Part shown: in pieces, positions 30,597-43,134 of the stretch
Layout: each line of letters starts with the position of its first letter
Numbering within the stretch: position 1 is the first letter of the stretch
The notes under the pieces: generated by a model
The model's database searches: none
What the model saw: the letters and a program-made list of their open reading frames with translations, nothing else
What the model was told of the DNA's origin: nothing
Source: Escherichia coli
GTDB taxonomy: Bacteria > Pseudomonadota > Gammaproteobacteria > Enterobacterales > Enterobacteriaceae
Length of the DNA stretch: 64,000 bases
Reading direction: 5' to 3' (one strand)
Assembly: GCF_965641715.1 (NCBI RefSeq)
Contig: NZ_OZ282453.1
Program-made: the position numbers and the translations under genes

Positions 30597-30963
30597 TACT
30601 GACCTCCGTCTGGGTATAGACATCATATTGCATAGAATTAACGCGGCGTATGGCGGCTGCCATATTTTCGCTACGTGGGACTAAGCTTAGTGAACTGACG
30701 CGGGCAGACCCGCGTTTGGTAATATCCTGCAACAGCTTCTTAGCGAGAATAGATATCATCTCCAATAATTATCTATAAGCCGCTCTTATGATTAAAAAAA
30801 CGCGATGAGATAAAAATGTGTCATTTTGCGACAAAATTGCGTGCTTGTGAAAGTTGTTATAAATCAAATAAGTGGTTGTGAAATTTGCACTCTGAAAAGG
30901 ACGTCTTATCTTTAAATAAGTGGTAGCGAATCGCTACGGAATAGAGATAACACGAGGAGTGGT

Positions 30964-31005
30964 TAGAAATGGCTAAAGTTCTGGTGCTTTTACATAGCTA
31001 AACAC
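30964..31005. other. attL of the wrbA island (proposed crossover GT at 30984-30985)
   Basis: The host-to-island transition is located by comparison with the attR junction. GTGCTTT is shared at 30984-30990 and 42533-42539. Confidence 0.7.
30969..31001 (+). pseudogene. wrbA: orphaned native 5' end of wrbA (MAKVLVLLHS*), severed by island insertion
   Basis: ATGGCTAAAGTTCTGGTGCTTT equals the remembered native wrbA start (MAKVLVLYYS...). The sequence diverges after 30990 and hits TAA at 30999-31001. Confidence 0.85.
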
Positions 31006-31329
31006 GTACATTCAACTACCTGTTAATTACAGGACATAAACAGGTTAGTACCTATTCAATTTAAAGGCATTTCCCCAAGTATCTAAGCAATTCTACACAG
31101 ATTCTATGCAGTATCGGTATAGTCCCTTTTTATCATAACTTATTGAAATATATAAAGAATCTGTGAAGTATCTTTTCAGGGTAAACTGTATCGTGTTAGT
31201 CGTCCCTCTCCAGACACTACATATAGTGCTATATACAGGGTTATATAGCGATGTATAGATGCTTGGTCACCATACGTTACAGTTGCAAGAGATAACAATC
31301 AGCTATGTGAAAGTTAGGAAGTGATGGTT

Positions 31330-31367
31330 ATAGTTGATTCGGTTAGTTCTAGGAATCAACCTCATAG
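31330..31367 (+). repeat. hairpin unit U1 (ATAGTTGATTC...CTCATAG family)
   Basis: Stem GTTGATTC (31333-31340) / GAATCAAC (31353-31360), 12-nt loop, then CTCATAG. Confidence 0.7.
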
Positions 31368-31934
31368 TTACCTTGTCAAATCTTCGTAGTTCCTCTTAAA
31401 AAATCACTTACAGACACCTTAATATCTATACAGATTTCATGTAGAACACGATTAGTGCGTAAAAAAGCTATTATGTTAAAAACGCACTGTATACGTATCA
31501 GTACTGATTTATAAGGGTTTTGTGTATTGGCTGATAAGAGGCTATACAGCACCTTGAGAGCATGTCTTGTAAGTCATTGATACATAAGGTCACAGAAGTT
31601 TGTAGCTGTTACAGAGAAAACTGGATAGGACTTCACAGGACTATAAAATGTTACAGCAATTGATAGGTGAAATCTTCTTGATAGATGCTGTGAAGTGTGA
31701 TGAAGGTTTCTTGAGGTGGAGTTAACAGATGCTATGAAGAAAGTCAATAGATATTTTAAAATTCTGCAAAGGGGGCCACATAGCTGGTGTGACGGGTACT
31801 TAGCAGGTATAGACCTGTGATAGATATTTTCGAAGATTCGGGGAAGATGAGATTCAAAGAGGACTAGTCATTTTTTATAAAAATTTTCAGAGTCTGAAAA
31901 GTTACTGCACAGATTTTGCACAATCCTACCAAGC

Positions 31935-31969
31935 CTCATAGTTGATTCGATTAGAAGCTAATCTCATAG
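31935..31969 (+). repeat. hairpin unit U2
   Basis: CTCATAG-TTGATTC, then stem GATTAG / CTAATC with loop AAG, then (C)TCATAG. Confidence 0.7.
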
Positions 31970-31972
31970 AAA

Positions 31973-32085
31973 GCTCTGTAGCGAGTTTTAACCCCATTTT
32001 TAGGGGTAACCTGTAGGGATGTACCACCCACCTTAAAATAAAGGGGTAAAATCGCTTAGAATGCGTTACAGAGCGTCTGAGAAGC
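31973..32085. repeat. inverted-repeat arm Y (partner 35643-35755)
   Basis: The reverse complement aligns without gaps to 35643-35755. 81 of 113 positions are identical by hand count. Confidence 0.75.
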
Positions 32086-32596
32086 CATATTCACAGATTT
32101 TACTAAAACCTCAGACTTCTAAGTGGTCTTTTTAACAGGAGGGTTCTTTCTCATGTATCACCCTCTCTTCCCGCCAAGTAAGCTACACAGACCTAGAGAA
32201 TATGCCTTCACAGCATCTATATCAGGTCAGATTTAGAGGTCTTGATAGAATCTTCAAAGGTACTTGACAGATAACTATGAAGTTGTTAGGAAGGGGTGTT
32301 TAACGGGGGAAGAGATACGATATAACCCGAAGGGGAGAGTATCATCTTAACAGTGATTGTAAGAGTAAAACTGAAAAGATACTTAACAGAACTACCAAGA
32401 GGGAGCGATAAGACCAGAGGTAGTGACCTGTTAAACAGTTCGTTTCAAAGCTCTTAAGAGTCTGTTAAGTAAGGTCATGTGAACAATCATATCATTTTGT
32501 CAATGCTTTTGTCTTTGACCTAAATCAATAAAATGTATCGTTTGATGTGCTTTTAAACAAAATAGTTAAAAATCTTTTTAGAGGGGCGCTTCGCTT

Positions 32597-33265
32597 GTGT
32601 CACATCCAATAATCCATATCGGTCGTTATCATGGTGGTTCTGATGACTGGCGTACACCGTATCGTCTATTTCATAACCTGCATCGTGAGTATAGCTTCAG
32701 TCTAGATGGCGCTGCAACTGAGCATGACGCATTGTTGCCACGGTTCACCGATGATATAAACCGTCAATCATGGGTTGGTGAACGGGTCTTCGTTAACCCG
32801 CCGTTTAGCATGGCTGAACAGTTCCTCGCAAAAGCCCCTGAAGCTGATGTGTGTGTATGTCTGGTTCCGCACAGGTCAAAGACAACTTACTGGCTTCGGT
32901 GTGTATATACAAACCCCTTCCTGCATGAGATTCGAACATTACACCGAGCGGTTAAATACCTTCCACCAGCAGGAAAGAGAGGTGTTGTAGCGCGTTCACC
33001 ATTTGCAAGCTGTGTTTTGATATACAGGAACACACCCCGTAAACCGAAGGTTGAAATTACCCAGACAATCTATTGTGGCGACACAATGCTTTTACTTGCC
33101 GTGGTTAATAGGGGTGGTTTACGTGGAAGACCTCATATACACGATGCACAGACGCTTGACAGGTTGATTAAAATGCATGACCAAGGGCAATCCGTCAAGA
33201 GTATCGCAGAATCGCTAAGAATGCCTCTAAGCACCACTTACAGGATTGTTCAAAGGTTGAGCTAA
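32597..33265 (+). CDS. phage Dam-family N6-adenine DNA methyltransferase fused to a C-terminal resolvase-type HTH
   Basis: GTG start with GAGGGG 10 nt upstream. DWRTP...FSLDGAA and VFVNPPFS (motif IV) resemble the phage T1/Stx-phage Dam family. The C-terminus GRPHIHDAQTLDRLIKMHDQGQSVKSIAESLRMPLSTTYRIV resembles the Hin/resolvase HTH. Confidence 0.75.
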   Translation: MSHPIIHIGRYHGGSDDWRTPYRLFHNLHREYSFSLDGAATEHDALLPRFTDDINRQSWVGERVFVNPPFSMAEQFLAKAPEADVCVCLVPHRSKTTYWLRCVYTNPFLHEIRTLHRAVKYLPPAGKRGVVARSPFASCVLIYRNTPRKPKVEITQTIYCGDTMLLLAVVNRGGLRGRPHIHDAQTLDRLIKMHDQGQSVKSIAESLRMPLSTTYRIVQRLS

Positions 33266-33266
33266 A

Positions 33267-33296
33267 ATTCTCATATAGAGCACTGATTATGAGAAT
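33267..33296 (+). terminator. 9-bp perfect hairpin directly after the methyltransferase stop
   Basis: ATTCTCATA (33267-33275) / TATGAGAAT (33288-33296), 12-nt loop. No clear T-tract, so its function is uncertain. Confidence 0.35.
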
Positions 33297-33474
33297 GTTA
33301 AAGAGGCGATTTCCCCTTTCTGGGGTTATTCGCTTTTTACTGGAAGGGTTATTTTACAGAGGTTTTTCAAACCCCCTCAATAATAAAAAACGAGCAACAA
33401 ACGAAGAGCGAGAAATAAAATATTGAGACTGGTGAACGGGGTCTGTAAAGATTGTTTAAGAAGTCGGTTTAGGG

Positions 33475-33518
33475 ATTGGTAGATGATTCGGATGAAGCAT
33501 CCTCATAACAATACCAAT
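33475..33518 (+). repeat. hairpin unit U3 (nested stems)
   Basis: Outer stem ATTGGTA / TACCAAT. TGATTCG. Inner stem GGATG-AAG-CATCC, then TCATAA. Confidence 0.65.
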
Positions 33519-33574
33519 TAGAAGGTGGCTCTCCCTTTCTGGGGATATCGCCTTGTATCTTAGTGAGTCCAGGA

Positions 33575-33751
33575 AGTTCTCTGTGAAGGGACTTGTCAGT
33601 CCTTTATATTGGCTAATTACAACTTATTGAAAAATAAGCATTTTTAGAAATCACTGTTAAGGTTACAGAGTTCTCTGTGAAGAGACTCGTCAGCTCTCTA
33701 TATTGGCTAATTACAACTCATTGAAAAATAAGCATTTTTAGAAATTGCTGT
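33575..33751 (+). repeat. two direct 83-bp repeats with 94-bp period
   Basis: 33575-33657 against 33669-33751: 75/83 identical by hand count. Each copy contains CTGTGAAG...CTTGTCAG/CTCGTCAG and the hairpin CTTATT-gaaa-AATAAG (copy A; copy B reads CTCATT). Confidence 0.85.
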
Positions 33752-33871
33752 CAGAGAGGTGAGTACTTGATAGATACAGCTTTCCGGTTCTGTCAAGATA
33801 TTTTTTAATAGATAGCACAAAATGCTAAAGATACCCCTATACCATCACGTACAGGGGGTTTTGAAGGGAGT

Positions 33872-34060
33872 TTAACGGGGTTCTGTGTGGTTATCTGTTC
33901 TGGTCCTGTCCTTGAGGTCAAATGACCATTCACGACCAAACAATCTGAACACGATAAACACCCGAACGATGAAATAGCGGAGCAGAAGACCTGCAATCAG
34001 CCCAACACCTCCACCAGCCCATACATCAGGTGACCCCAGCTCAGGAGGGAGATTTACCAT
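33872..34060 (-). CDS. possible small membrane protein (62 aa from the internal ATG; 74 aa from the first ATG at 34096)
   Basis: Only minus-strand ORF in the island besides int. This patch is visibly more GC-rich than the surrounding non-coding DNA. AGGAA lies upstream of ATG 34060. TM segment GGGVGLIAGLLLRYFIVRVFIVF followed by a basic tail. Confidence 0.35.
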   Translation of the reverse strand: MVNLPPELGSPDVWAGGGVGLIAGLLLRYFIVRVFIVFRLFGREWSFDLKDRTRTDNHTEPR

Positions 34061-34097
34061 TAAATTTCCTGTGTGCAATGCAATACCATGTGACATA

Positions 34098-34153
34098 CAT
34101 AGTTGATTCGGTTAGTTGGGCTTGTACCAACCCCTATCGAATAAACCTCATAG
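34098..34153 (+). repeat. hairpin unit U4 (nested stems)
   Basis: CATAGTTGATTCGGTTAGTT is identical to U1 over 19 nt. Outer stem TTGATTCG / CGAATAAA, inner stem GTTGG / CCAAC, ends in CTCATAG. Confidence 0.7.
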
Positions 34154-34222
34154 CCACGCTTCATATTTCCCCCTCTCTCATAAACCATTATACCACAAAT
34201 GTTACGAAATTGTTAAAAATAC

Positions 34223-34251
34223 TTGACATTAGTCTTTGAAAATGCTAGTAT
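34223..34251 (+). promoter_or_regulatory. island promoter P1 (sigma70-type)
   Basis: TTGACA-17 nt-TAGTAT, preceded by TGTTAAAAAT and followed by TGTATATA. It is a near-copy of P2. A GTTAA-N7-TTAAC palindrome follows at 34261-34277. Confidence 0.65.
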
Positions 34252-34299
34252 TGTATATAAGTTAACAGAGAATTAACAATTATAAGGACTAGCTTATGA

Positions 34300-34857
34300 A
34301 TGAACGACAGAGAATTTAGAGCGATGCTTCAGGCATCGAGACAACGTAACAGATACAACTCCTACAGCTACACAGACACCCCCACCAGCTACGAACTACC
34401 CAAGCTCACCAGAGCAGAACGCAAAGGCCTTGATGAATTAATTCGTAGCATTACGCCACGAGATAGATTTATGCCAACCAGAAAGAGCACGAAGAACACT
34501 ATTAAAAATTATCTGGCTAACTTTGACAGCTACGAACAATTACCAAGTAAGCTTGATGATGTAATTATCGGATTCTGTAGAAGTGAAGGTCACCCGAAAT
34601 ACAACAAAAAACTATTTTATCTTCTAAAGAATCTTGACGAAATTAACTCAGCCACCGTGACAAATCATCTTCAGCGTCAAGCAACCAGACTTAGCCATGA
34701 ATTACCAAGCGATAAATATTGCGCTTTGCTTGCTGTAATGTGCGCAAAGTTAATTGGTGTTGTTGAGCATCATATTGCCGTTGGAAATATTGAGCCAATG
34801 GAAAACGAGCAACCAGATTTCGAGTTTGACCCGTATTTAGTTACAGAGGAATTTTAA
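34300..34857 (+). CDS. hypothetical protein, 185 aa
   Basis: AAGGA upstream. First gene after P1. No family recognised. Confidence 0.65.
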   Translation: MNDREFRAMLQASRQRNRYNSYSYTDTPTSYELPKLTRAERKGLDELIRSITPRDRFMPTRKSTKNTIKNYLANFDSYEQLPSKLDDVIIGFCRSEGHPKYNKKLFYLLKNLDEINSATVTNHLQRQATRLSHELPSDKYCALLAVMCAKLIGVVEHHIAVGNIEPMENEQPDFEFDPYLVTEEF

Positions 34858-35136
34858 ATGAAGAAACACACTTTGACCCGTATTTCAGAAGAAGCCTTTC
34901 ACGAGCTTACCCGAATTAAACAGACAACTAACCTCCCTCATCAAACTGTTATGCAGCTTGCAATTGCTAAAGAGGTTACTGAGTCGGATTTACTGAAATA
35001 TCCAGTCTCTAAAGGTCGTAAGCACATCCGAATTACTCAGGACGCTTTAGATACTTTGAAGGCACTTAACAACTTTAAAATTGATATCGCCCGACTATTG
35101 AGTATTAAGATTCACAAGTTAGCAATGGGGGTTTAA
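34858..35136 (+). CDS. hypothetical protein, 92 aa (possible ribbon-helix-helix DNA binder)
   Basis: ATG abuts the upstream TAA. The N-terminal KKHTLTRISEEAFHEL pattern looks RHH-like (weak). Confidence 0.55.
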   Translation: MKKHTLTRISEEAFHELTRIKQTTNLPHQTVMQLAIAKEVTESDLLKYPVSKGRKHIRITQDALDTLKALNNFKIDIARLLSIKIHKLAMGV

Positions 35137-35351
35137 TGCTATGCGTTACCTTTGAATACCACACGGATAAAATGATTCGCTACATCTCCGACCTCCTGAT
35201 TGAAGGAAACGGATTCGGTGACATCCATAACTCAAAAGATATTTTCATTAAAGCCATTGGCCCAAATGAAGTACTGAAAACAGCAGTTAAACCGGAATGG
35301 TTTGAGCGTCACAAGATTGAATTAGGTTATTGGGGTGAGGAGGTTTTATGA
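35136..35351 (+). CDS. hypothetical protein, 71 aa
   Basis: TAATG overlap with the upstream gene. Confidence 0.55.
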   Translation: MLCVTFEYHTDKMIRYISDLLIEGNGFGDIHNSKDIFIKAIGPNEVLKTAVKPEWFERHKIELGYWGEEVL

Positions 35352-35635
35352 AACCTTGGCATGAAGATGTTAGACGATATTTTACAGAACACCTTATCTA
35401 TGATGAATCCAGTGATTCCCTGTGCTGGTCTGATGGAGAGTCAGTCACGATAAACACCGACGACTACGGCAACAAAACATTTAATATAGGCCGATATACT
35501 TTCTACGTGAAATATGTTGTCTGGTTCCTTTATCATGGCTATCAATCCAACAAGCAAATTATCCATCGAAATGGTAACAGAGCCGATACCAGACCAAAAA
35601 ATCTTATGCAAGTCCGAGACTTTAAGAGAAATTAG
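35348..35635 (+). CDS. small HNH-type endonuclease-like protein, 95 aa
   Basis: ATGA overlap with the upstream gene. YVVWFLYHGY...IHRNGNRADTRPKNL resembles the HNH_3 motif (H-x-N-G-N..DNR..NL). Confidence 0.65.
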   Translation: MKPWHEDVRRYFTEHLIYDESSDSLCWSDGESVTINTDDYGNKTFNIGRYTFYVKYVVWFLYHGYQSNKQIIHRNGNRADTRPKNLMQVRDFKRN

Positions 35636-35642
35636 AAAAACA

Positions 35643-35755
35643 GCTTCTCAGACGCTCTCAATCGCATTCTAACGCAAAAAACTATCTTATTTTAGGGTGG
35701 GTAATACCACTGTACAGGCTACCCCTGAAAAAGACTGTTTAGCTCGTTACAGAGC
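35643..35755. repeat. inverted-repeat arm X (partner 31973-32085)
   Basis: See arm Y. Lies in the 156-bp gap between the HNH gene and the next ORF. Confidence 0.75.
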
Positions 35756-35791
35756 GATTGAGGAGGTCTGGTAAAAAGGAGATTTTAAGAA

Positions 35792-36121
35792 ATGAGAGAA
35801 TTAAACTTCCCACTACAGATTTTTATTGATACCGACACCGCCATGATGATTCAGGCTTTCACTGATGTAGGTGTTAGCATTGACTTTGATAAGTTGTTAG
35901 AGTTAATGACTGATAATGCGGAAAGCATCTCTGACTTTATTCAGTCGGTGGAGTTTAACGAGCCTCGAATGATGCTACCAATTAAAGACAGCAACATGAA
36001 AAGATTGGTTATCGAGCAAACGAACAAATTCAGCGTTAGCCCTGAAAAATATCTCAAGGCGGCTATAGCAATTTTGTACGCTGACAATATTTTGGTGACG
36101 GATTCGAAGGTGGTGCATTAA
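35792..36121 (+). CDS. hypothetical acidic protein, 109 aa
   Basis: AAGGAG lies 8 nt upstream of the ATG. Confidence 0.6.
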   Translation: MRELNFPLQIFIDTDTAMMIQAFTDVGVSIDFDKLLELMTDNAESISDFIQSVEFNEPRMMLPIKDSNMKRLVIEQTNKFSVSPEKYLKAAIAILYADNILVTDSKVVH

Positions 36122-36186
36122 TGGAATTGGTGATTATCTGTTTTGTATTGATTGGTATGATTGCAGGTGCATCTATTAAAGTATAA
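36121..36186 (+). CDS. 21-aa hydrophobic peptide MELVIICFVLIGMIAGASIKV
   Basis: TAATG overlap with the upstream stop (translational coupling). Single TM-like stretch. Below the ORF-track size cutoff. Confidence 0.4.
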   Translation: MELVIICFVLIGMIAGASIKV

Positions 36187-36211
36187 ATGTTACCAATCTG
36201 TTAAAAATCTG

Positions 36212-36240
36212 TTGACAAATAACCTTGAGCATGACATAAT
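36212..36240 (+). promoter_or_regulatory. island promoter P2 (sigma70-type)
   Basis: TTGACA-17 nt-CATAAT, preceded by TGTTAAAAAT and followed by TGTATATA. Confidence 0.65.
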
Positions 36241-36246
36241 TGTATA

Positions 36247-36503
36247 TATATGAGGATAGTCTTCTATCCGAAGTCTATAGGGAGAGCAATTCTCCTTGAA
36301 TTAAAATATTAATCATCTCTACATCAATGATAACTATATTCTGAGTTGGTGAGGTATGTTCTATACCGAACATTCTGAAAGGTGCAATGCTTTTCGTCAT
36401 GGCCTTTCAGTTTAGTCTGAGAGGCTATCTCAAAAAGTGCTTAATCATTCATTCATTGAATCCTTTACAGCTTTGCCCTAATCATGAGTTAGGGCGTTTC
36501 TTT
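36247..36503 (+). ncRNA. putative ~255-nt leader/short RNA from P2 to the first terminator
   Basis: No ORF of 60 aa or more. Hairpins GGATAG-tctt-CTATCC, GGAGA-gcaat-TCTCC and CTGAAAGG (36375-36382) / CCTTTCAG (36403-36410). Ends at an intrinsic terminator. Confidence 0.3.
36475..36503 (+). terminator. intrinsic terminator in the P2 leader
   Basis: GCCCTAA-tcatgag-TTAGGGC followed by GTTTCTTT. Confidence 0.7.
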
Positions 36504-36573
36504 AAGAGTTTTAAGCAGAGCTTTTAAAGAAAGTTTTTCCTGAAACTTCGTTAACGTTATAAAGCAAACCTTC

Positions 36574-36610
36574 AAAGCCCTTCACAGATTCAATGTTTAG
36601 GGCTTTTCTT
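36574..36610 (+). terminator. second hairpin/terminator in the P2 leader
   Basis: AAAGCCCT / AGGGCTTT 8-bp stem. The 17-nt loop contains CTTCACAGATT. Followed by TCTT. Confidence 0.45.
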
Positions 36611-36707
36611 AATAGAGCATCTTTAATAAATCGTTAAGTCATCTTCTAAGTGTATTGGCGTTGAAGGTGCTCTGTTAAGAAATAAACCACACTTAGAGGA
36701 AGTTATA

Positions 36708-37418
36708 ATGACAAACGATTTATATATTAACGGTAAAAAGGTTGATAGCTTCGGTGACTGGTCGCCACAGACTGAACATCCAGCTATCACTATTCAGCGC
36801 AAAGAACACGATGAAAGAATTGCACTTGAGCAAGAAATCCGAATGTCACCAAAGGTAATTTCCTTTGTGGCTCCTGAGCCTCAAGATATGCCGGATATTT
36901 GCAAAACTGAAGCATTGCTTGAGCTTGAAAAGAAATTTTACCCAGCTTTAAAAGCACAGCGTCTTAAACTAGATGACGCTTACAGTAAAGTTACCCTGAT
37001 GCAATCAGCTATTGAGCCATCAGAATTTGAGATTCAGGATGAATTGTCACAGAAACCATTTGTCTATTACCAATATGAAGACAATGATGGTTTTGGTACT
37101 TTTCCTGAGAATATCCCAGACGTGATTAATAATCCGATGGATGGATATCGAATTGTGAAGATGGTTAAGGCATCAAGAGGTGCTGGTCAGTTTATTTACA
37201 TGACTAATAAGAGCGATGAAGAACTCGCTGAACTTGCTAGACAGAACATCTTGGCATCACGTAACAAGCAGCTTGATAATGTTAAGTTGTATCTCTCAAG
37301 AGAGCTTCAGGCTATGAAAGACCTTGTGAAAGAATATGAAGATGCTAAGAAGATTGCTATGCAAGCCGATATTGAGCAGTTAGTGAAGATTTCTAGCAAA
37401 TATGCAAAGGCTATTTAA
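36708..37418 (+). CDS. hypothetical acidic/coiled-coil protein, 236 aa
   Basis: AGAGGAAG upstream. It sits where tail assembly chaperones sit in siphophage gene order, but I saw no sequence motif supporting that role. Confidence 0.6.
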   Translation: MTNDLYINGKKVDSFGDWSPQTEHPAITIQRKEHDERIALEQEIRMSPKVISFVAPEPQDMPDICKTEALLELEKKFYPALKAQRLKLDDAYSKVTLMQSAIEPSEFEIQDELSQKPFVYYQYEDNDGFGTFPENIPDVINNPMDGYRIVKMVKASRGAGQFIYMTNKSDEELAELARQNILASRNKQLDNVKLYLSRELQAMKDLVKEYEDAKKIAMQADIEQLVKISSKYAKAI

Positions 37419-37437
37419 TTATGATGTGAGGTGAAGA

Positions 37438-37653
37438 ATGATTGATTTAACTGAACGCTATGAAGTTATTAAGTCTGTTTGTGAGAACTTAAAGCTTCAG
37501 ACTAAACCAAAGCTACGAATTAAAAATCAGCATCAAGTTATCACCTCACACAAACCAAAGGTTAGAAGGATTCCTTCATGGTGTATTGACCGTGTTCCTG
37601 CTGATGCTCAATTAATTGGTGAGTCTGGTTCTTACACTTATATCCTTCATTAA
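37438..37653 (+). CDS. hypothetical basic protein, 71 aa
   Basis: GAGGTGAAG upstream. Confidence 0.5.
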   Translation: MIDLTERYEVIKSVCENLKLQTKPKLRIKNQHQVITSHKPKVRRIPSWCIDRVPADAQLIGESGSYTYILH

Positions 37654-37660
37654 AAATTAC

Positions 37661-37704
37661 AAAGGGGAGAGATTAGCCTTAATTGGTTAGTCTTTCCCTT
37701 TTTC
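37661..37704 (+). terminator. imperfect hairpin + T-run upstream of the tape-measure gene
   Basis: aaaggggagaga ... tctttccctttttcg, with a bulged stem. Confidence 0.4.
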
Positions 37705-37734
37705 GTATATGAACACTTAAGAGGTGAAACATGA

Positions 37735-39864
37735 ATGGCACAGTTTAAAGTTGATAGTTTTATCGTTGAGCTAGGCTTCAGCGAGAACGTTATTAAGGGC
37801 TTGCAAAGAGTTGAAAAGGCAGCTTTGCAGTCAGCACAAAGAATTGAGCGTAATTTGAATAGAGCGTTTAAGGTCGATACCAAGCAACTTGACAGCAATT
37901 TAACGGCTTCTTTGAAGTCAATGGAAGGAAAAATTAATAAGACCTTTGACCGTCTGGAAGCTAGAGCAAAAAATACTAAAGCTTTCCAGTTTACCACCAG
38001 ATTTAATGACACTGTTAATCCTCCAAAACAACCGAGACAGCCACGAATTAGCGGCAACAGAGCAATCACAGCAGCTTACTCAGCGAATATGAGCAAGTTA
38101 AAGGGCTTTGACCCTATTTTGCAGAAATACATCAAATCTCAGTTTTACGGGCTATCTGCTAAAGCTGGGTCAATGGATAACACCAAGTTTAATGAAGCCC
38201 TTGCTAAACTAAATTCAAGTGTAAGAGAAGCAATTGCTAAAGCTAAAGGTCATACATCCACCAGCATTAACGGTGACAGAGCAGCTAATAGTCTTGATAA
38301 CCTGTCTTCAGCGGCGGTTAAAACAGCAGGTGCATTTATCTCAATGCAGGCTGTATTAGCCAGTTATCAGAAGATTATGGAGGTTGGTTTACAGCGTGCA
38401 AGTGCTGAGCGTTCAATTGATTTCGTATTTGATAAAGATGCAGGTCAGGTAAAAGAGTTCACAAAGTCATTAGCTCAAACAACGGGTTTAGATATCGCTG
38501 AACTGCAATCACAGTTTGCTGGTTTCGGTGCTTCAGCTAAAGAGTCTATGGGTATTCAAGGTTCTGAAGAGCTTTTTAGAAATATGATTGGCTATGCTCG
38601 TTTAATGGGTCGAAGTGAAGAAGAGATTAAGCGAGCACTGACAGCATTATCACAGATGGCTGGTAAGGGTCAGGTTATGGCTGAAGAGCTTAAGGGGCAA
38701 CTAGCTGAAGCTGTTCCTGGTATGGTTCAGGTATTCGCTAAAGCAACCGGAAAGAGTGAACAGGAATTATTTGATGCCATGAAGAAGGGGGCTTTAAAAT
38801 CTGCCGATACTCTTCAGAAGGTCACTCAGGAACTGAATAGACAAATCACCGCTAAAGGTGGCTGGAAAGCTATTTCAGAAAGTACACAGGCACAACTAGG
38901 GAACTTGAAAAACTCTTGGAATACCACGCTTGACAGTATTTTCAGAGGTTCTGAAGATGGTTTACAGGACTTCACAAGAAGCTTAACCAATCTTCTAAAC
39001 GCTCTTGGTGGAACTGGTAAAACATTAGGTGAAAGTTTTGGTAGCTTGATGAGCGATATGTCACATGGTATCGATTCATTGACTGATATCTCTTACAGGG
39101 TACGAGGTTTCTTTGATGAGGTGACATTAGCTTACCGTTCACTAAATGACACTCAGAAAAAAATTGTTGATGGTTTATCTGATGGGTTAATTGATGGTTT
39201 GAAAATGCTTGCCGTAGCTGTTACTGCTCAAAAGGCTGCAAATGTAGCTGGAGGCTTGTTAAACCTTGCAAACGCTGTTACTTCATTCGGTGACGCTGTT
39301 AATAAAGCTAAAGCTGGCAAGGCTGGTTCTTCAGGTGGTGCGCTAAGTAAAGTCGGTAGAGTTGTCCTTTATGCTGAGTTGGTAAACTTTGCTCTTGATA
39401 ATTTAAACCCTGAAGCAGCTAAGAATCCGAACTTACATCAATCAGGTATTGGAACAGAGACAAACTTCAACCCTGAATACAAAGGCGATTCTACACCAAA
39501 CCAAATTAATGATGGATGGGCTAAGATTGGTAGTTCTATCGCTGACTGGTTTAATGGTGCGGCTAATAAAATTGCTAACTTCCAAGAGCCAATGAGTAAC
39601 CTTGTTAATAACACACAATCAACTCCACCAGCTATTACAGGTGACATGGTTAATAGCAATGCTCAACTTGCAATGGCTATTAGTGAACTATCACGTAAGG
39701 TTGATGCTTTAACAGCAGAATCTAAGAAGCCCTTGTCACTTAATATCAAAGGTGAAGCAATTGTTAGACCGGATGAACCAGCTTTCTTTACTTTCAATCA
39801 ATCAGCTAATGACCAGTTCACGCAGGATATGCTCTTAAGTTCAAGCTATCCAGAGGAAGAATGA
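37735..39864 (+). CDS. phage tail tape-measure protein, 709 aa
   Basis: GAGGTG lies 8 nt upstream. LSQMAGKGQVMAEELKGQLAEAVPGMVQVFAKATGKSEQELFDAMKKGALKSADTL matches the conserved tape-measure N-terminal domain pattern. Long Ala/Gly/Ser-rich helical protein. Confidence 0.8.
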   Translation: MAQFKVDSFIVELGFSENVIKGLQRVEKAALQSAQRIERNLNRAFKVDTKQLDSNLTASLKSMEGKINKTFDRLEARAKNTKAFQFTTRFNDTVNPPKQPRQPRISGNRAITAAYSANMSKLKGFDPILQKYIKSQFYGLSAKAGSMDNTKFNEALAKLNSSVREAIAKAKGHTSTSINGDRAANSLDNLSSAAVKTAGAFISMQAVLASYQKIMEVGLQRASAERSIDFVFDKDAGQVKEFTKSLAQTTGLDIAELQSQFAGFGASAKESMGIQGSEELFRNMIGYARLMGRSEEEIKRALTALSQMAGKGQVMAEELKGQLAEAVPGMVQVFAKATGKSEQELFDAMKKGALKSADTLQKVTQELNRQITAKGGWKAISESTQAQLGNLKNSWNTTLDSIFRGSEDGLQDFTRSLTNLLNALGGTGKTLGESFGSLMSDMSHGIDSLTDISYRVRGFFDEVTLAYRSLNDTQKKIVDGLSDGLIDGLKMLAVAVTAQKAANVAGGLLNLANAVTSFGDAVNKAKAGKAGSSGGALSKVGRVVLYAELVNFALDNLNPEAAKNPNLHQSGIGTETNFNPEYKGDSTPNQINDGWAKIGSSIADWFNGAANKIANFQEPMSNLVNNTQSTPPAITGDMVNSNAQLAMAISELSRKVDALTAESKKPLSLNIKGEAIVRPDEPAFFTFNQSANDQFTQDMLLSSSYPEEE

Positions 39865-40020
39865 TTTAACGGTGTTCTACGTGAATAAAGCAAAGTTAAT
39901 ACCCACACCAAAAATTATTTTTCACGTAGCTCACGCTTAACAGAGAAAATACATATATATCAAAGGCTTGGTTAAAAATGATTAAAATACACTAAGCCTT
40001 TGAAATCAAAGGAGAATTTA

Positions 40021-40794
40021 ATGATTTTTAGCAATCAAATCCGCTACAGTGGCAAAGATGGCATCTATTTCCACTTAAGAGATAATGTAGATGCCTTCTT
40101 AACCTTATCAGCAACTGAAAACATGGAATTTGACAGTCCTATGCAGGTGACTACACAGAACATGCAATCAGGGCAAACCGTCACAGATAATGTGCAAAGA
40201 GCACCCAGAACAATCACTATTAGTGGTGTCGTTGTAGTTGGCTATGAAGGAAGCTTATTATTAACTCGTCAGGGTCAATTAGTAGAAAACTTCATTGACA
40301 CTCTTGAAAGCTGGAGAGACCAGAAACAAATTATTTCAGTGATTTGTAAAGATGGTATCAAGATTGATGACTCAATTATTACCAACTTTAAAGCCTCTAA
40401 AGATGTTACTATCTCTAACGGTCTTCGTATCCAGCTAACTTTTCAGGAAATTAACTTCAAAGCCATTGTAGGGCAAACTGATGTTTCAGCAGCTACTGGC
40501 AAAACTGCTACCACTAATGATGGTGGTGCTACCAGTAAAAAGAATGCGGGTAACGTGACTACTGAACGCAATAACGCACCTATGTTGATGTGTCAGGAAC
40601 TGTATAGCTACTCAGCATCTGAGCTATCTGATGAAGCGCTAAGGGTCCGTAGCAATTGCTCTAAAAATGTCACGGTGAAAGATGGTGTAAGCACCTTCAC
40701 AGCCTCAGCTAATGAGCAGGCTTCAAAAGTGCTTAAGTCGGGTAATGCTTTACGGAAGTTTAGTGTGAATCCGAATAAGAAGGGCACTTATTGA
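40021..40794 (+). CDS. putative tail-tip/distal-tail-like protein, 257 aa
   Basis: GGAG lies 6 nt upstream of ATG 40021. Sits directly after the TMP. The assignment rests on position only. Confidence 0.45.
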
Positions 40795-40811
40795 TTGGTA
40801 ACAATACCAAT
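40794..40811. terminator. hairpin between the convergent tail gene and int
   Basis: ATTGGTA-acaa-TACCAAT. These are the same arms as the outer stem of unit U3. Confidence 0.45.
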
Positions 40812-40813
40812 TC

Positions 40814-42457
40814 CTAAGCGTCCACCTCTTCCATATCACCAGCAGGATAAATCCTTGTTACTGGTTCACCAAAAATAAGCATATCATCTAGTGACTGCAT
40901 CTCATCGGTTGCTTCTTCAAGCGTTAAGGTGTGGTCATCTTTACCATCAAGAGGGAAACCACGAATCATATTTCCATTGTGAAGATATATATCCACCAGC
41001 TTTTCATTACCAGAAACAACAATCTCTTTCACCAGACGCTTAATGATAATCTGGGCTTCAGTTCTCCCCTCTACAGACTCCATATCAAGACCGCTTAAAT
41101 CCAAGCTTGATACAGATTTTACCCTCGCCTTTTCTCGTGATAACTGAACTATCAGTTCATCTTTTTCTTCCTGCTTAACCCGTAGTGCTTCCTGAATCTG
41201 AGTGATGTTAGGAAGCTGTATCAGCGTCTCAGTAAGTTTTTCAAGTTCACTATCAACGGTGTTTAGTCTGCGTTGTAGCTCATCCAATTTAGCTGTGTCA
41301 GTAGCTTCATCGTGTAGCTGTGATAGTTTGCTGAACAGACGACTACAAAGCTGTGTATCAAGTAACTTTCTGGACACTGTACCGTAGCTACAACGGGACT
41401 CCTTATTACCATTGCAACGGTAAGTACCTTGATAAACGGGTTTACGTATCCCTGTAGGAGTCATTACAAGCCCACACTTACAACGGATAAGCCCCTTCAG
41501 TATGTTCACATATAGCCAGTGTTCACCGCTGGATGTTTTCCCCTTCCCTGTTTCCTCTAACAGTTGCTGTACAGCGTAAAACTTAGAGTCTGTGACAATC
41601 TGAGGATAGAACCCTTCAATTTCTTCACGTAACACTGTTTTACGGTCTTCTGTAGAAATCTTAGCGGGAAGGTAACCTAATACACTTCGTGAAGTCAGGA
41701 TGTGTTTAACGCTTAATGCTGACCAGTTGCCATCCGGTTTCTTAGTCTTGGATATTCTGACCTTACGCTGATTAATGGTCGGGTAACCTTGTTCGTTTAG
41801 CCATTTACAGATAGCAAACATCGACATACCAGAAAGACGCTTGTCATAGATGATATTCACCAGTGACGCTTTATCTTCATCAACGATGTAGTGTGAACCG
41901 TCTTCTGATAGCTCTAACCATCCGGGGGCTTGCTTACCCATAGGCTTCTTAAGTTCTCTTGCAAGCTGTGTTTTATGGTTCCAGACCTGAGCTATACGCT
42001 TTTGCTTAACAAGAGATTCCTGATGTGCTCTCTCAGCTATGATGATGTGCTTAATCAACTTCACAGGGTCTGTTAATGCTGATTTGTCGTAGAGTTCACC
42101 ATCTCCCAGAGTCAGTATAGAGACTCCTTTCCTCAGTATCTGCCTGACATCATCTATAGCTGTGTCGATATCAGCCCTACTGAAGCGGTCAAAGTTCTCT
42201 ACAACAATCAGGGAACCTTCTGGAATAGCCCCAGACATAACATTTTCAAACATACGTCTGAAGTCAGAACCTTGAGCCTTATGTTGCTGGTGAAAACCAG
42301 ATTTACCCTTATCAACGTATCTGTGAGCAGGAAGAAGGTAATAATCGTTTTTGTGCTTAGAGTAGAAAGCATCAATGAGGTTTGTTTGCCGTCTTAAGGA
42401 GTCTCCTGAGTCTTGCTCTTTAGTACTCCACCTGATGTATGTCACTAGCAGCTTCAT
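40814..42457 (-). CDS. large serine recombinase (integrase), 547 aa
   Basis: N-terminal resolvase catalytic domain ([28 protein letters not shown]). Recombinase domain. Cys-rich zinc ribbon (CKCG...YRCNG...C). Coiled-coil. Terminal position 75 bp from attR. Confidence 0.88.
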
Positions 42458-42508
42458 ATCTTCGGACTATGCTTATCTAAGTGGTTCATTGAACAGGAGA
42501 ACAATGAT

Positions 42509-43114
42509 ATGAGTGTTAAGGCAAGAATACTAGTGCTTTATTATTCCATGTACGGACATATTGAAACGATGGCACGCGCAGTCGCTGAGGGTGCAAGCAA
42601 AGTGGATGGCGCTGAAGTTGTCGTTAAGCGTGTACCGGAAACCATGCCGCCGCAATTATTTGAAAAAGCAGGCGGTAAAACGCAAACTGCACCGGTTGCA
42701 ACCCCACAAGAACTGGCCGATTACGACGCCATTATTTTTGGTACACCTACCCGCTTTGGCAACATGTCCGGTCAAATGCGTACCTTCCTCGACCAGACGG
42801 GCGGCCTGTGGGCTTCCGGCGCACTATACGGAAAACTGGCGAGCGTCTTTAGTTCCACCGGTACTGGCGGCGGTCAGGAACAAACCATCACATCCACCTG
42901 GACGACCCTTGCGCATCACGGCATGGTGATTGTCCCCATTGGCTACGCAGCGCAGGAATTATTTGACGTTTCACAGGTTCGCGGCGGTACGCCGTACGGC
43001 GCAACCACCATCGCAGGCGGTGACGGCTCACGCCAGCCAAGCCAGGAAGAACTGTCTATTGCTCGTTATCAAGGGGAATATGTCGCAGGTCTGGCAGTTA
43101 AACTTAACGGCTAA
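42509..43114 (+). CDS. wrbA: NAD(P)H:quinone oxidoreductase WrbA, hybrid allele with an island-encoded N-terminus
   Basis: 201 aa. [17 protein letters not shown]... against remembered native [14 protein letters not shown].... AGGAG at 42495-42499. The remainder matches WrbA. Confidence 0.92.
42513..42554. other. attR of the wrbA island (proposed crossover GT at 42533-42534)
   Basis: Island-to-wrbA transition. See attL. Confidence 0.7.
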
Positions 43115-43134
43115 TCTTCAACAGGAGGATACGC

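Follow-up and report, generated by a model that had tools for sequence, protein, structure and literature searches.

A large serine recombinase beside its attachment site in a wrbA island of Escherichia coli: weak int signals, natural attP-form molecules and candidate directionality factors

Background

In phages that integrate by means of a large serine recombinase (LSR), the integrase gene adjoins attP (phiC31 Int/gp3, Bxb1 gp35/gp47, SPbeta SprA/SprB, and phiRv1 Int/Xis), and the direction of recombination is set by a small partner that belongs to no protein family and binds the zinc-ribbon/coiled-coil region of the enzyme. One of these recombination directionality factors (RDFs), Xis of phiRv1, is a DNA-binding protein. 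In the circles of the insertion sequences (IS) IS911, IS30 and IS2, the two ends contribute a -35 and a -10 element, which together make up a strong promoter. The gene wrbA is known as the place of integration of the Stx prophages 933W and Sp5, which are lambdoid phages of approximately 60 kb with tyrosine integrases. Here we consider an island of 11.5 kb that shares this target with 933W and Sp5 and carries an LSR gene, int; it lies in a stretch of 64,000 nucleotides from E. coli (assembly GCF_965641715.1, contig NZ_OZ282453.1), which is referred to below as the window and whose positions are used throughout.

In the phage-inducible chromosomal island-like element (PLE) of Vibrio cholerae, the LSR integrase is constitutive, no open reading frame (ORF) of PLE is needed for excision, and the RDF is the protein PexA of phage ICP1 (McKitterick and Seed 2018, PMC6002521). 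The integrase of our island, judged by its sequence, is already catalogued together with its att sites as Ec04, and the feature is therefore not new. Ec04 stands in a table whose title reads “experimentally characterized” LSRs (Durrant et al. 2022, PMC10083194), and Shin et al. refer to this list as “active integrases”. Ec04 and Ec03 are the LSRs of two types of islands considered below (at wrbA and upstream of tonB, respectively), and Durrant et al. treated them as genome-editing tools; the island, the expression of int and the RDF were not their subject. The quality filter of the same study kept only LSRs within 500 nt of the predicted att site, and since this distance serves as a quality criterion, an int gene adjoining its att site is the rule among LSRs and the arrangement described here is ordinary.

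Results

The locus can be read as a standard LSR cassette with attP next to int, in which low constitutive expression of int is combined with a separate directionality factor; we regard this reading as evenly balanced between right and wrong. Its anatomy is given in Table 1.

Table 1. Features of the island, its boundaries and related loci (positions in the window unless another sequence is named)
Feature	Position	Strand	Remarks
Orphaned native wrbA start	30969-31001	+	native ATG at 30969; remnant MAKVLVLLHS-stop runs into the island; includes the attL B half-site
attL core GTGCTTT	30984-30990		crossover dinucleotide inside the core; alignment with the empty K-12 site; agrees with published Ec04 attP/attB
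P' half-site of attP	30991-31018		kept with the wrbA-type int, replaced in the yecE and tonB types
Palindrome CCTGTTAATTACAGG, then ACAGG/CAGG repeats approximately 10 bp apart	31019-31047		first conserved cargo feature beside attP/attL
CTGT[GT]AAG copies	31161-32462, 33581-33675, 36587-36672; in garuso (L009+L010) 49508-50205
ORF o92, 92 aa, tandem ribbon-helix-helix	34858-35136	+	best published RDF candidate; synteny with EL023_RS13870
int, LSR published as Ec04, 547 aa	40814-42457	-	ORF call, Pfam, PHROG, match to Durrant et al. 2022
Spacer from int ATG to att core, 75 bp	42458-42532		5' region of int on the minus strand, RBS and start of rebuilt wrbA on the plus strand
Rebuilt wrbA	42495-43114	+	the island gives AGGAG (42495-42499), ATG (42509) and the first 8 codons; the remainder is host DNA
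Putative P half-site of attP/attR	42507-42532		from attP symmetry; binding of Int presumed
attR core GTGCTTT	42533-42539		alignment with the empty K-12 site
Sister types of the island	yecE (L005, L018); tonB upstream (L007, L013, L015 = Ec03); lafU-dinB (L006); inside mdtG (L016, L017)
Small serine recombinase in relatives	L002 2656-3204; L006 5429-5977; L013 7283-7852; L016 2195-2770

The start codon of int is ATG, and an in-frame TAG four codons upstream means that the start cannot lie further upstream. Int has the parts of an LSR: a catalytic resolvase domain with a nucleophilic serine (Pfam Resolvase PF00239, 6e-11, residues 5-155; motif YIRWSTKEQ at residues 7-15, where S11 is invariant in an alignment of five Int proteins), then a Recombinase domain (DBD1; PF07508, 6e-20), and a zinc ribbon with an embedded coiled coil (DBD2). 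The latter is visible as the invariant cysteines C326, C328, C348 and C356 followed by a heptad-like segment at approximately residues 395-450; the match to Zn_ribbon_recom (PF13408, 2e-4, 22.1 bits) falls under the 25.3-bit cut-off. PHROG 95 (“integrase”) matches Int at 2e-78. A search of the supplement to Durrant et al. with the N-terminal peptide of Int led to Ec04 (WP_053290909.1), to which Int is identical over the approximately 400 residues printed there; the published attB agrees with the one derived by us, and the published attP agrees except for a few variable bases beyond the P' half-site.

The exact protein is found on 154 contigs, and its cluster at 90% identity has 2970 members (E. 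coli, Salmonella, Shigella). The query of int with its spacer was matched in 73 of 5426 complete E. coli genomes, and every listed match that reaches the spacer adjoins wrbA. The preliminary description of the locus had named an inactive or pseudogenised int as a finding that would speak against it; what we find points the opposite way, considering that int is intact here, is 95-100% conserved in 100-bp bins across six sequences and is listed as experimentally characterised, and that 58 of the 73 genomes hold 80% or more of the query.

Alignment of attL and attR with the empty K-12 site gives an insertion of 11,542 bp (30991-42532) in the 5' end of wrbA, flanked by a 7-bp common core that is identical in attL, attR, attB and attP. 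As in LSR sites generally, attP and attB are short and share only this small central identity around the crossover dinucleotide. attP is most symmetrical when centred on the first GT of the core (14 of 26 positions match), the arms being partly similar, which suggests that the crossover dinucleotide is the GT at 30984-30985. The distance of 75 bp between the start of int, facing outward, and host DNA, as previously described, is exact. The left arm had been drawn from 30986; the geometry was right, and the island DNA begins at 30991 according to the alignment of the core with K-12.

The island is integrated into codons 6-7 of wrbA, and the gene is repaired with a ribosome-binding site (RBS), an ATG and 8 codons supplied by the island. 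The new RBS and ATG are indeed located on the strand of the spacer opposite to int, as had been proposed, and the PGAP annotation of relatives gives an identical WrbA of 201 aa. The native promoter and start of wrbA now drive the 10-codon remnant MAKVLVLLHS, which reads into the left arm of the island (30700-31001), and the rebuilt gene must be transcribed from a start within the island, in the direction antisense to int. No good plus-strand promoter for the rebuilt wrbA was found in the 350 bp before its ATG at 42509 (the best has 6.1 bits).

The impression that int has neither a good sigma70 pair nor a strong Shine-Dalgarno (SD) sequence in the spacer held when it was put into numbers. A scan of the minus strand of the spacer with the consensus promoter gave no match. 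The best position-weight sigma70 score is 7.15 bits (TTGCCT-18-TCTCCT, no usable -10), a value that 27% of 82-bp windows drawn at random from the island reach or exceed, and the second match, TAGTAT-17-TATCAT, has 6.1 bits. The SD pairing of the 22 nt upstream of int amounts to -1.0 kcal/mol, compared with -6 to -13 for most other island genes. Clear promoters do occur in the island: 15.5 bits at 34223-34251 (plus strand), 15.3 bits at 36212-36240 (plus strand) and 13.3 bits at 34216-34187 (minus strand). The other int types also have better promoter matches between att and int (lafU 11.0, yecE 9.6 and tonB 8.3 bits), and two of the other modules have good SD sequences; the wrbA module is the weakest, plausibly since its spacer also encodes the 5' end of wrbA. 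The putative P half-site lies over the wrbA ATG and over the hexamers that could serve int as a promoter, namely the best -10-like one (TATCAT, 42509-42504) and the -35-like ones, and Int may accordingly regulate its own gene by occupying this half-site over the promoter hexamers. The spacer is invariant in six wrbA-type sequences, which is not significant given an overall divergence of approximately 2% and the non-independence of the sequences.

It had also been suggested that the DNA upstream of int changes on excision, so that the expression of int could differ between the integrated and excised states. The geometry is real, and natural attP junctions exist (see below); the promoter in the left arm is the part that did not find support. 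In the reconstructed circle, the minus strand of the left arm (1.6 kb, 30991-32600) has nothing above 9.4 bits, and the 9.4-bit site itself is 1.6 kb from attP. The -10-like hexamers TAGAAT, TATATT and TATGAT at 31090-31152 point to attP and lack an acceptable -35. The best site spanning the junction, TTGAAT-17-TAAAAG, has 6.8 bits and lacks the conserved final T, and no minus-strand promoter near attP rises above background. The circles of IS911, IS30 and IS2 share with this locus the idea that circularisation changes the DNA upstream of a recombinase gene. Unlike in these circles, no strong promoter results from the joining of a -35 and a -10 element across the wrbA-type junction, the best hybrid site having only the 6.8 bits mentioned. 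A state-dependent promoter of int is therefore unsupported.

Two minor observations concern the DNA around int. The stop codons of the Dit-like gene and of int are convergent and 19 bp apart (40795-40813); a short palindrome, TTGGTAacaaTACCAA, lies between them, and there is no convincing terminator, therefore read-through of the TMP-Dit operon (TMP, tape measure protein) would give RNA antisense to int. A plus-strand ORF of 45 aa (42375-42512), whose stop overlaps the wrbA ATG (ATGA), was judged to be a chance antisense ORF.

An exact search with the predicted attP junction found three metagenome contigs (L024, L025 and L026). The contig L025 has 11,233 bp with a 55-bp terminal overlap; on it are a wrbA-type int, the spacer of 75 bp, the core and the left arm. 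At its junction, one base in the P' half-site departs from our reconstruction, and L024 has the identical one-base difference. The junction of L026 equals the reconstruction exactly; it comes from a contig of 23,009 bp, i.e., approximately two unit lengths, which may be a concatemer. The tonB-type island was found in two samples (L020 and L021) as contigs of 10,909 bp with 55-bp terminal overlaps and different start points. These start points and overlaps are consistent with a circle; the rotation check was made without trimming the overlaps, and the identity of the two contigs is not established by it. A further fragment (L022) has a coverage of approximately 1478x. Together with the circular contigs and the 23-kb contig, this coverage bears only indirectly on any excision, replication and packaging that a helper infection may induce. 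The 55-bp terminal overlap is a signature of circular assembly, and the attP form of wrbA-type islands occurs in nature, whether it arises by excision or represents newly transferred DNA. Because attP-form contigs are found, we consider the islands to be mobile now, with attP-form DNA accumulating.

DNA 80-90% identical to the cargo of the island (approximately 31019-40796) is found again elsewhere, joined to other LSRs (Table 1), so that at least five LSR/att modules (wrbA, yecE, tonB upstream, lafU-dinB and mdtG) are combined with the same cargo. The LSRs of different types are 27-40% identical, with the exception of mdtG and yecE (approximately 63%). The end of int nearest to att is its 5' end in each of the five types examined, with approximately 45-155 bp between it and the junction. 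The lafU-dinB type has its module inverted with respect to the cargo: int is at the left end and faces inward, and in the circle it would be downstream of the Dit-like gene on the same strand. The exchangeable unit consists of int, the spacer and attP with only approximately 28 bp of the left arm, namely the P' half-site. Directly after this arm, the examined wrbA-, yecE- and tonB-type islands and the circular contigs have the palindrome of Table 1, which is a candidate binding site for an accessory DNA-binding protein. A scan of a contig collection with one genome per species gave 3 loci. An ORF of 65 aa upstream of int in the mdtG-type island was considered as a module-borne RDF and rejected, as it is the N-terminal fragment of the host mdtG.

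That no RDF is recognisable, as stated in the preliminary description, was confirmed by homology: neither Pfam nor PHROGs gave a match of any island ORF to an excisionase or RDF family. This is expected because the RDFs of LSRs share no fold (Shin et al.). The best published lead is an ORF for a protein of 92 aa, referred to here as o92. By synteny and sequence, it is the orthologue of EL023_RS13870 (MKNKHTLTRITKTA...), which the Shin et al. preprint gives as the RDF of Ec03 predicted by AlphaFold-multimer with DBD2 alone as bait. For this orthologue, binding to its integrase at the junction of DBD2 and the coiled coil is thus a published prediction. The structural model of o92 (pLDDT 92) is a single-chain tandem ribbon-helix-helix (RHH) protein with the beta-alpha-alpha unit repeated twice. 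Among PDB structures, TraY (F relaxosome), DndE and AvtR are nearest to it in fold, all of them proteins that bind DNA or have an architectural role; a sequence search of the PDB with the o92 profile gave nothing meaningful. The gene is present at the same position in all of the approximately 15 islands examined, the most divergent included, and the family is restricted to Escherichia, Citrobacter and Salmonella. Matches to o92 in IMG/VR were long provirus calls and were set aside as uninformative.

As to the nature of the island, Pfam and PHROG recognise among its ORFs only a Dam-type protein with a helix-turn-helix (HTH), an HNH endonuclease, the TMP, a Dit-like protein and the LSR; over all ORFs of the island, these two collections gave no capsid, terminase, lysis or recognisable replication genes. 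In this respect it is of the PLE kind, i.e., a small integrated island without capsid, terminase and lysis genes. The Dit-like protein is 74% identical in amino acids to gp119 of the virulent phage Felixounavirus garuso, and the DNA is 90% identical over 519 bp (40036-40554). The TMP of the island is only 31% identical to that of the phage, and the ends of its gene are conserved in DNA (37726-37869, 39836-39879 and 40765-40806). When all island proteins were compared with phage garuso by tblastn, only the TMP and the Dit-like protein matched; neither o92 nor any other small ORF has a homologue there.

The octamer CTGT[GT]AAG is present 15 times in the island (seven copies are in the left arm) and 34 times in garuso, which has a non-coding region of 1.6 kb between convergent genes with seven copies arrayed on the same strand. 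The host flank (51 kb) has no copy of CTGTGAAG and 3 copies of CTGTTAAG. The octamer may be a site shared by phage and island for a protein involved in replication, packaging or regulation. The host range of the o92 family matches a link to Felix O1-like phages. On the whole, the island looks like an undescribed satellite of these phages or an island directed against them; the library searched gave no description of it (Felix O1/Felixounavirus satellite, wrbA serine recombinase, or satellite with TMP and LSR).

Discussion

We propose the following working of the cassette. The 75-bp spacer would do three jobs, serving as the 5' end of wrbA, as the P half-site bound by Int, and as whatever promoter int has; this triple use would explain why the signals of int are so weak, with neither an SD nor a sigma70 match above background. 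Expression of Int would be low, more or less constitutive and probably self-limited, whether the island is integrated or circular, and a separate directionality factor, rather than transcription of int, would decide when and in which direction recombination takes place. The TraY-like RHH protein o92 would be the best candidate for this role, expressed from the strong promoter at 34223-34251 and possibly docking on the palindrome beside the P' arm. Failing o92, a protein of a helper phage related to Felix O1 could serve, as PexA of ICP1 does for PLE. A constitutive LSR with a separately supplied RDF has its precedent in this pair of PLE Int and PexA. We believe it most likely that the direction is set by a separate factor, with the island RHH protein as the best lead and a helper-phage protein as the main rival.

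Several points weigh against this proposal. A weak promoter score is no proof of weak transcription, and leaderless or phage-driven expression of int is possible; the circular contigs may derive from newly transferred DNA and not from excision; and in two tonB-type islands (L013 and L015) an ORF of 221 aa lies between the palindrome and att. Over nine islands, the identities of o92 and of Int are correlated at a Spearman coefficient of -0.27, i.e., the two do not co-vary: two tonB-type Int proteins are 95% identical while their o92 proteins are 60% identical, and Int proteins of 31-36% identity are accompanied by o92 proteins of 92-95%. Ec04 is absent from the table of predicted RDFs in the Shin et al. 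preprint; four RDF predictions that these authors tested failed, and the one for Ec03 is a prediction. The lack of co-variation is unexpected for the specific partner of an LSR and makes the assignment of o92 as the RDF uncertain. The earlier suggestion that the RDF may come from a small ORF within 34300-36121 or from a helper thus stands in so far as the only published lead lies in that range, whereas its assignment is uncertain for lack of co-variation with Int.

If it were an RDF, o92 would be DNA-binding like Xis of phiRv1. In phiC31, Bxb1, SPbeta and phiRv1, however, the RDF is matched to its integrase, whereas o92 is common, at 92-95% identity, to islands whose LSRs are approximately 30-36% identical. 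Either o92 is promiscuous, perhaps because the conserved site next to the P' arm holds it on the DNA, or it acts as a regulator, in which case the RDF comes from elsewhere.

The latter possibility leads to the main rival, in which the island encodes no RDF, as in PLE, and a protein of a Felix O1-like phage binds the resident Int to cause excision and may also drive int. The PLE Int/PexA pair is a precedent, and the Dit-like protein (with the identities to gp119 given above), the conserved ends of the TMP gene and the shared octamer all point to such a phage, as does the confinement of the o92 family to Escherichia, Citrobacter and Salmonella; the absence of co-variation of o92 with Int and the published conclusion that RDFs are often scavenged or moonlighting proteins fit as well. 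This rival inherits the difficulty met with o92, since one phage protein must serve at least five LSRs that are 27-40% identical; moreover, the published in-silico pulldown gave an island-encoded partner for Ec03, and the helper relationship is itself putative. We therefore consider the phage-supplied RDF a tentative and rather unlikely reading. Somewhat more doubtful still is a wider proposal, according to which the islands are an undescribed family of approximately 11 kb in enterobacteria that parasitise Felix O1-like phages or defend against them, have swappable LSR modules, and are excised by a factor anchored on the DNA at CCTGTTAA..ACAGG. The anchored factor in this counterpart of PLE would be either the TraY-like RHH protein of the island or a phage protein that recognises the CTGT[GT]AAG repeats. 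Anchoring on the cargo DNA would explain how one factor could serve at least five LSRs of 27-40% identity.

The remaining explanations concern int itself. It could be promoterless while integrated and transcribed only in the circle, across attP from the left arm, being shut off by integration. A spacer with nothing above background and an int without an SD would fit, as would the natural attP junctions with their real geometry, and the -10-like hexamers at 31090-31152 would lie 180-240 bp upstream of int in the circle and point toward it. Yet these hexamers have no acceptable -35, and no site in 30991-32600 exceeds 9.4 bits. Since only approximately 28 bp of the left arm travels with int, such a promoter would be outside the exchangeable module, which argues against it; in the inverted lafU-type module, the DNA upstream of int in the circle is the end of the Dit-like gene; and excision needs Int while the island is still integrated. 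We find this explanation improbable. Read-through from the host, antisense to wrbA and yccJ, starting from the convergent agp or from a chance promoter in wrbA, could also supply int. The best minus-strand match near int is in fact in host DNA (TTGCCA-17-AAAAAT at 42762-42734, 10.3 bits), and the minus-strand hairpin after agp has no T run; but this site is part of the wrbA coding sequence, is present with or without the island and probably arose by chance, the distances are 280-940 nt, and for the islands at other att sites one would have to suppose a different host promoter in each case, all of which makes such a supply very unlikely. Finally, a fixed and decaying prophage remnant in which int is no longer used would account for the lack of capsid, terminase and replication genes and for the IS insertions or truncated int of some relatives. 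It is contradicted by the attP-form circular contigs of the wrbA and tonB types and is at odds with an intact int conserved at 95-100% across six sequences and with the same cargo being joined to at least five LSR/att modules; we give it hardly any credence.

As it stands, the finding is of little consequence: int beside att, weak signals and no recognisable RDF are usual for an LSR, and the enzyme and sites are already published. The likeness to PLE consists in an LSR within a small capsid-less island that appears to be linked to a virulent myovirus, and in an RDF that is not recognisable by homology. It differs from PLE in that the dependence on a helper and the phage RDF are only putative here, and in that our island has a TMP and a Dit-like protein and a published island-encoded RDF candidate. 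We presume that the greater interest is outside the integrase cassette, in the nature of the island and in one shared factor possibly serving many LSRs. If the link is true, the island would be a satellite of Felix O1-like phages, a kind of element well studied mainly as PLE in V. cholerae. From a practical viewpoint, Ec03 and Ec04 are enzymes for genome engineering, whose reactions could be run in reverse with a working RDF; concrete targets that can be tested cheaply are at hand in the shared, non-co-varying o92 and in the conserved site that adjoins attP.

Other features of the island

The conserved ends of the TMP gene look as if they were ready for cassette exchange by recombination (37726-40806). 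The DNA after o92 (35136-35635) is a variable cassette, as judged by comparison with L001, L005, L007, L013, L015 and L016: it holds an ORF of 71 aa with an HNH endonuclease of 95 aa, an HNH protein of 90 aa with an ORF of 66 aa, or an HTH protein of 128-130 aa, and the variant present is independent of the type of int.

A conserved ORF of 62 aa on the minus strand (33872-34060) has one hydrophobic helix (MVNLPPELGSPDVWAGGG(V/I)GLIAGLLLRYF...). It is located behind the strongest minus-strand promoter, TTAACA-18-TATAAT (in the region 34187-34251), and is divergent from the strong promoter of the operon at 34300; a terminator-like hairpin comes after the ORF at 33857-33834. A role as a toxin, in exclusion or in abortive infection is conceivable for its product.

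Two tandem direct repeats of 83 nt, 90% identical (33575-33657 and 33669-33751), are found in a non-coding stretch of 1 kb and are also present in relatives. An Rfam scan of 30700-43500 at E<=1 gave no match. The Dam-type methyltransferase of the island (32597-33265), which ends in a resolvase-type HTH_7 domain at its C-terminus, is missing in some relatives. In its stead, several relatives have in the left arm a small serine recombinase of 182-191 aa (Table 1), which the window lacks. Inverted repeats of 20-22 nt in the left arm of the island (31158-31179, 31894-31915 and 32371-32390) could be sites of such a small serine recombinase.

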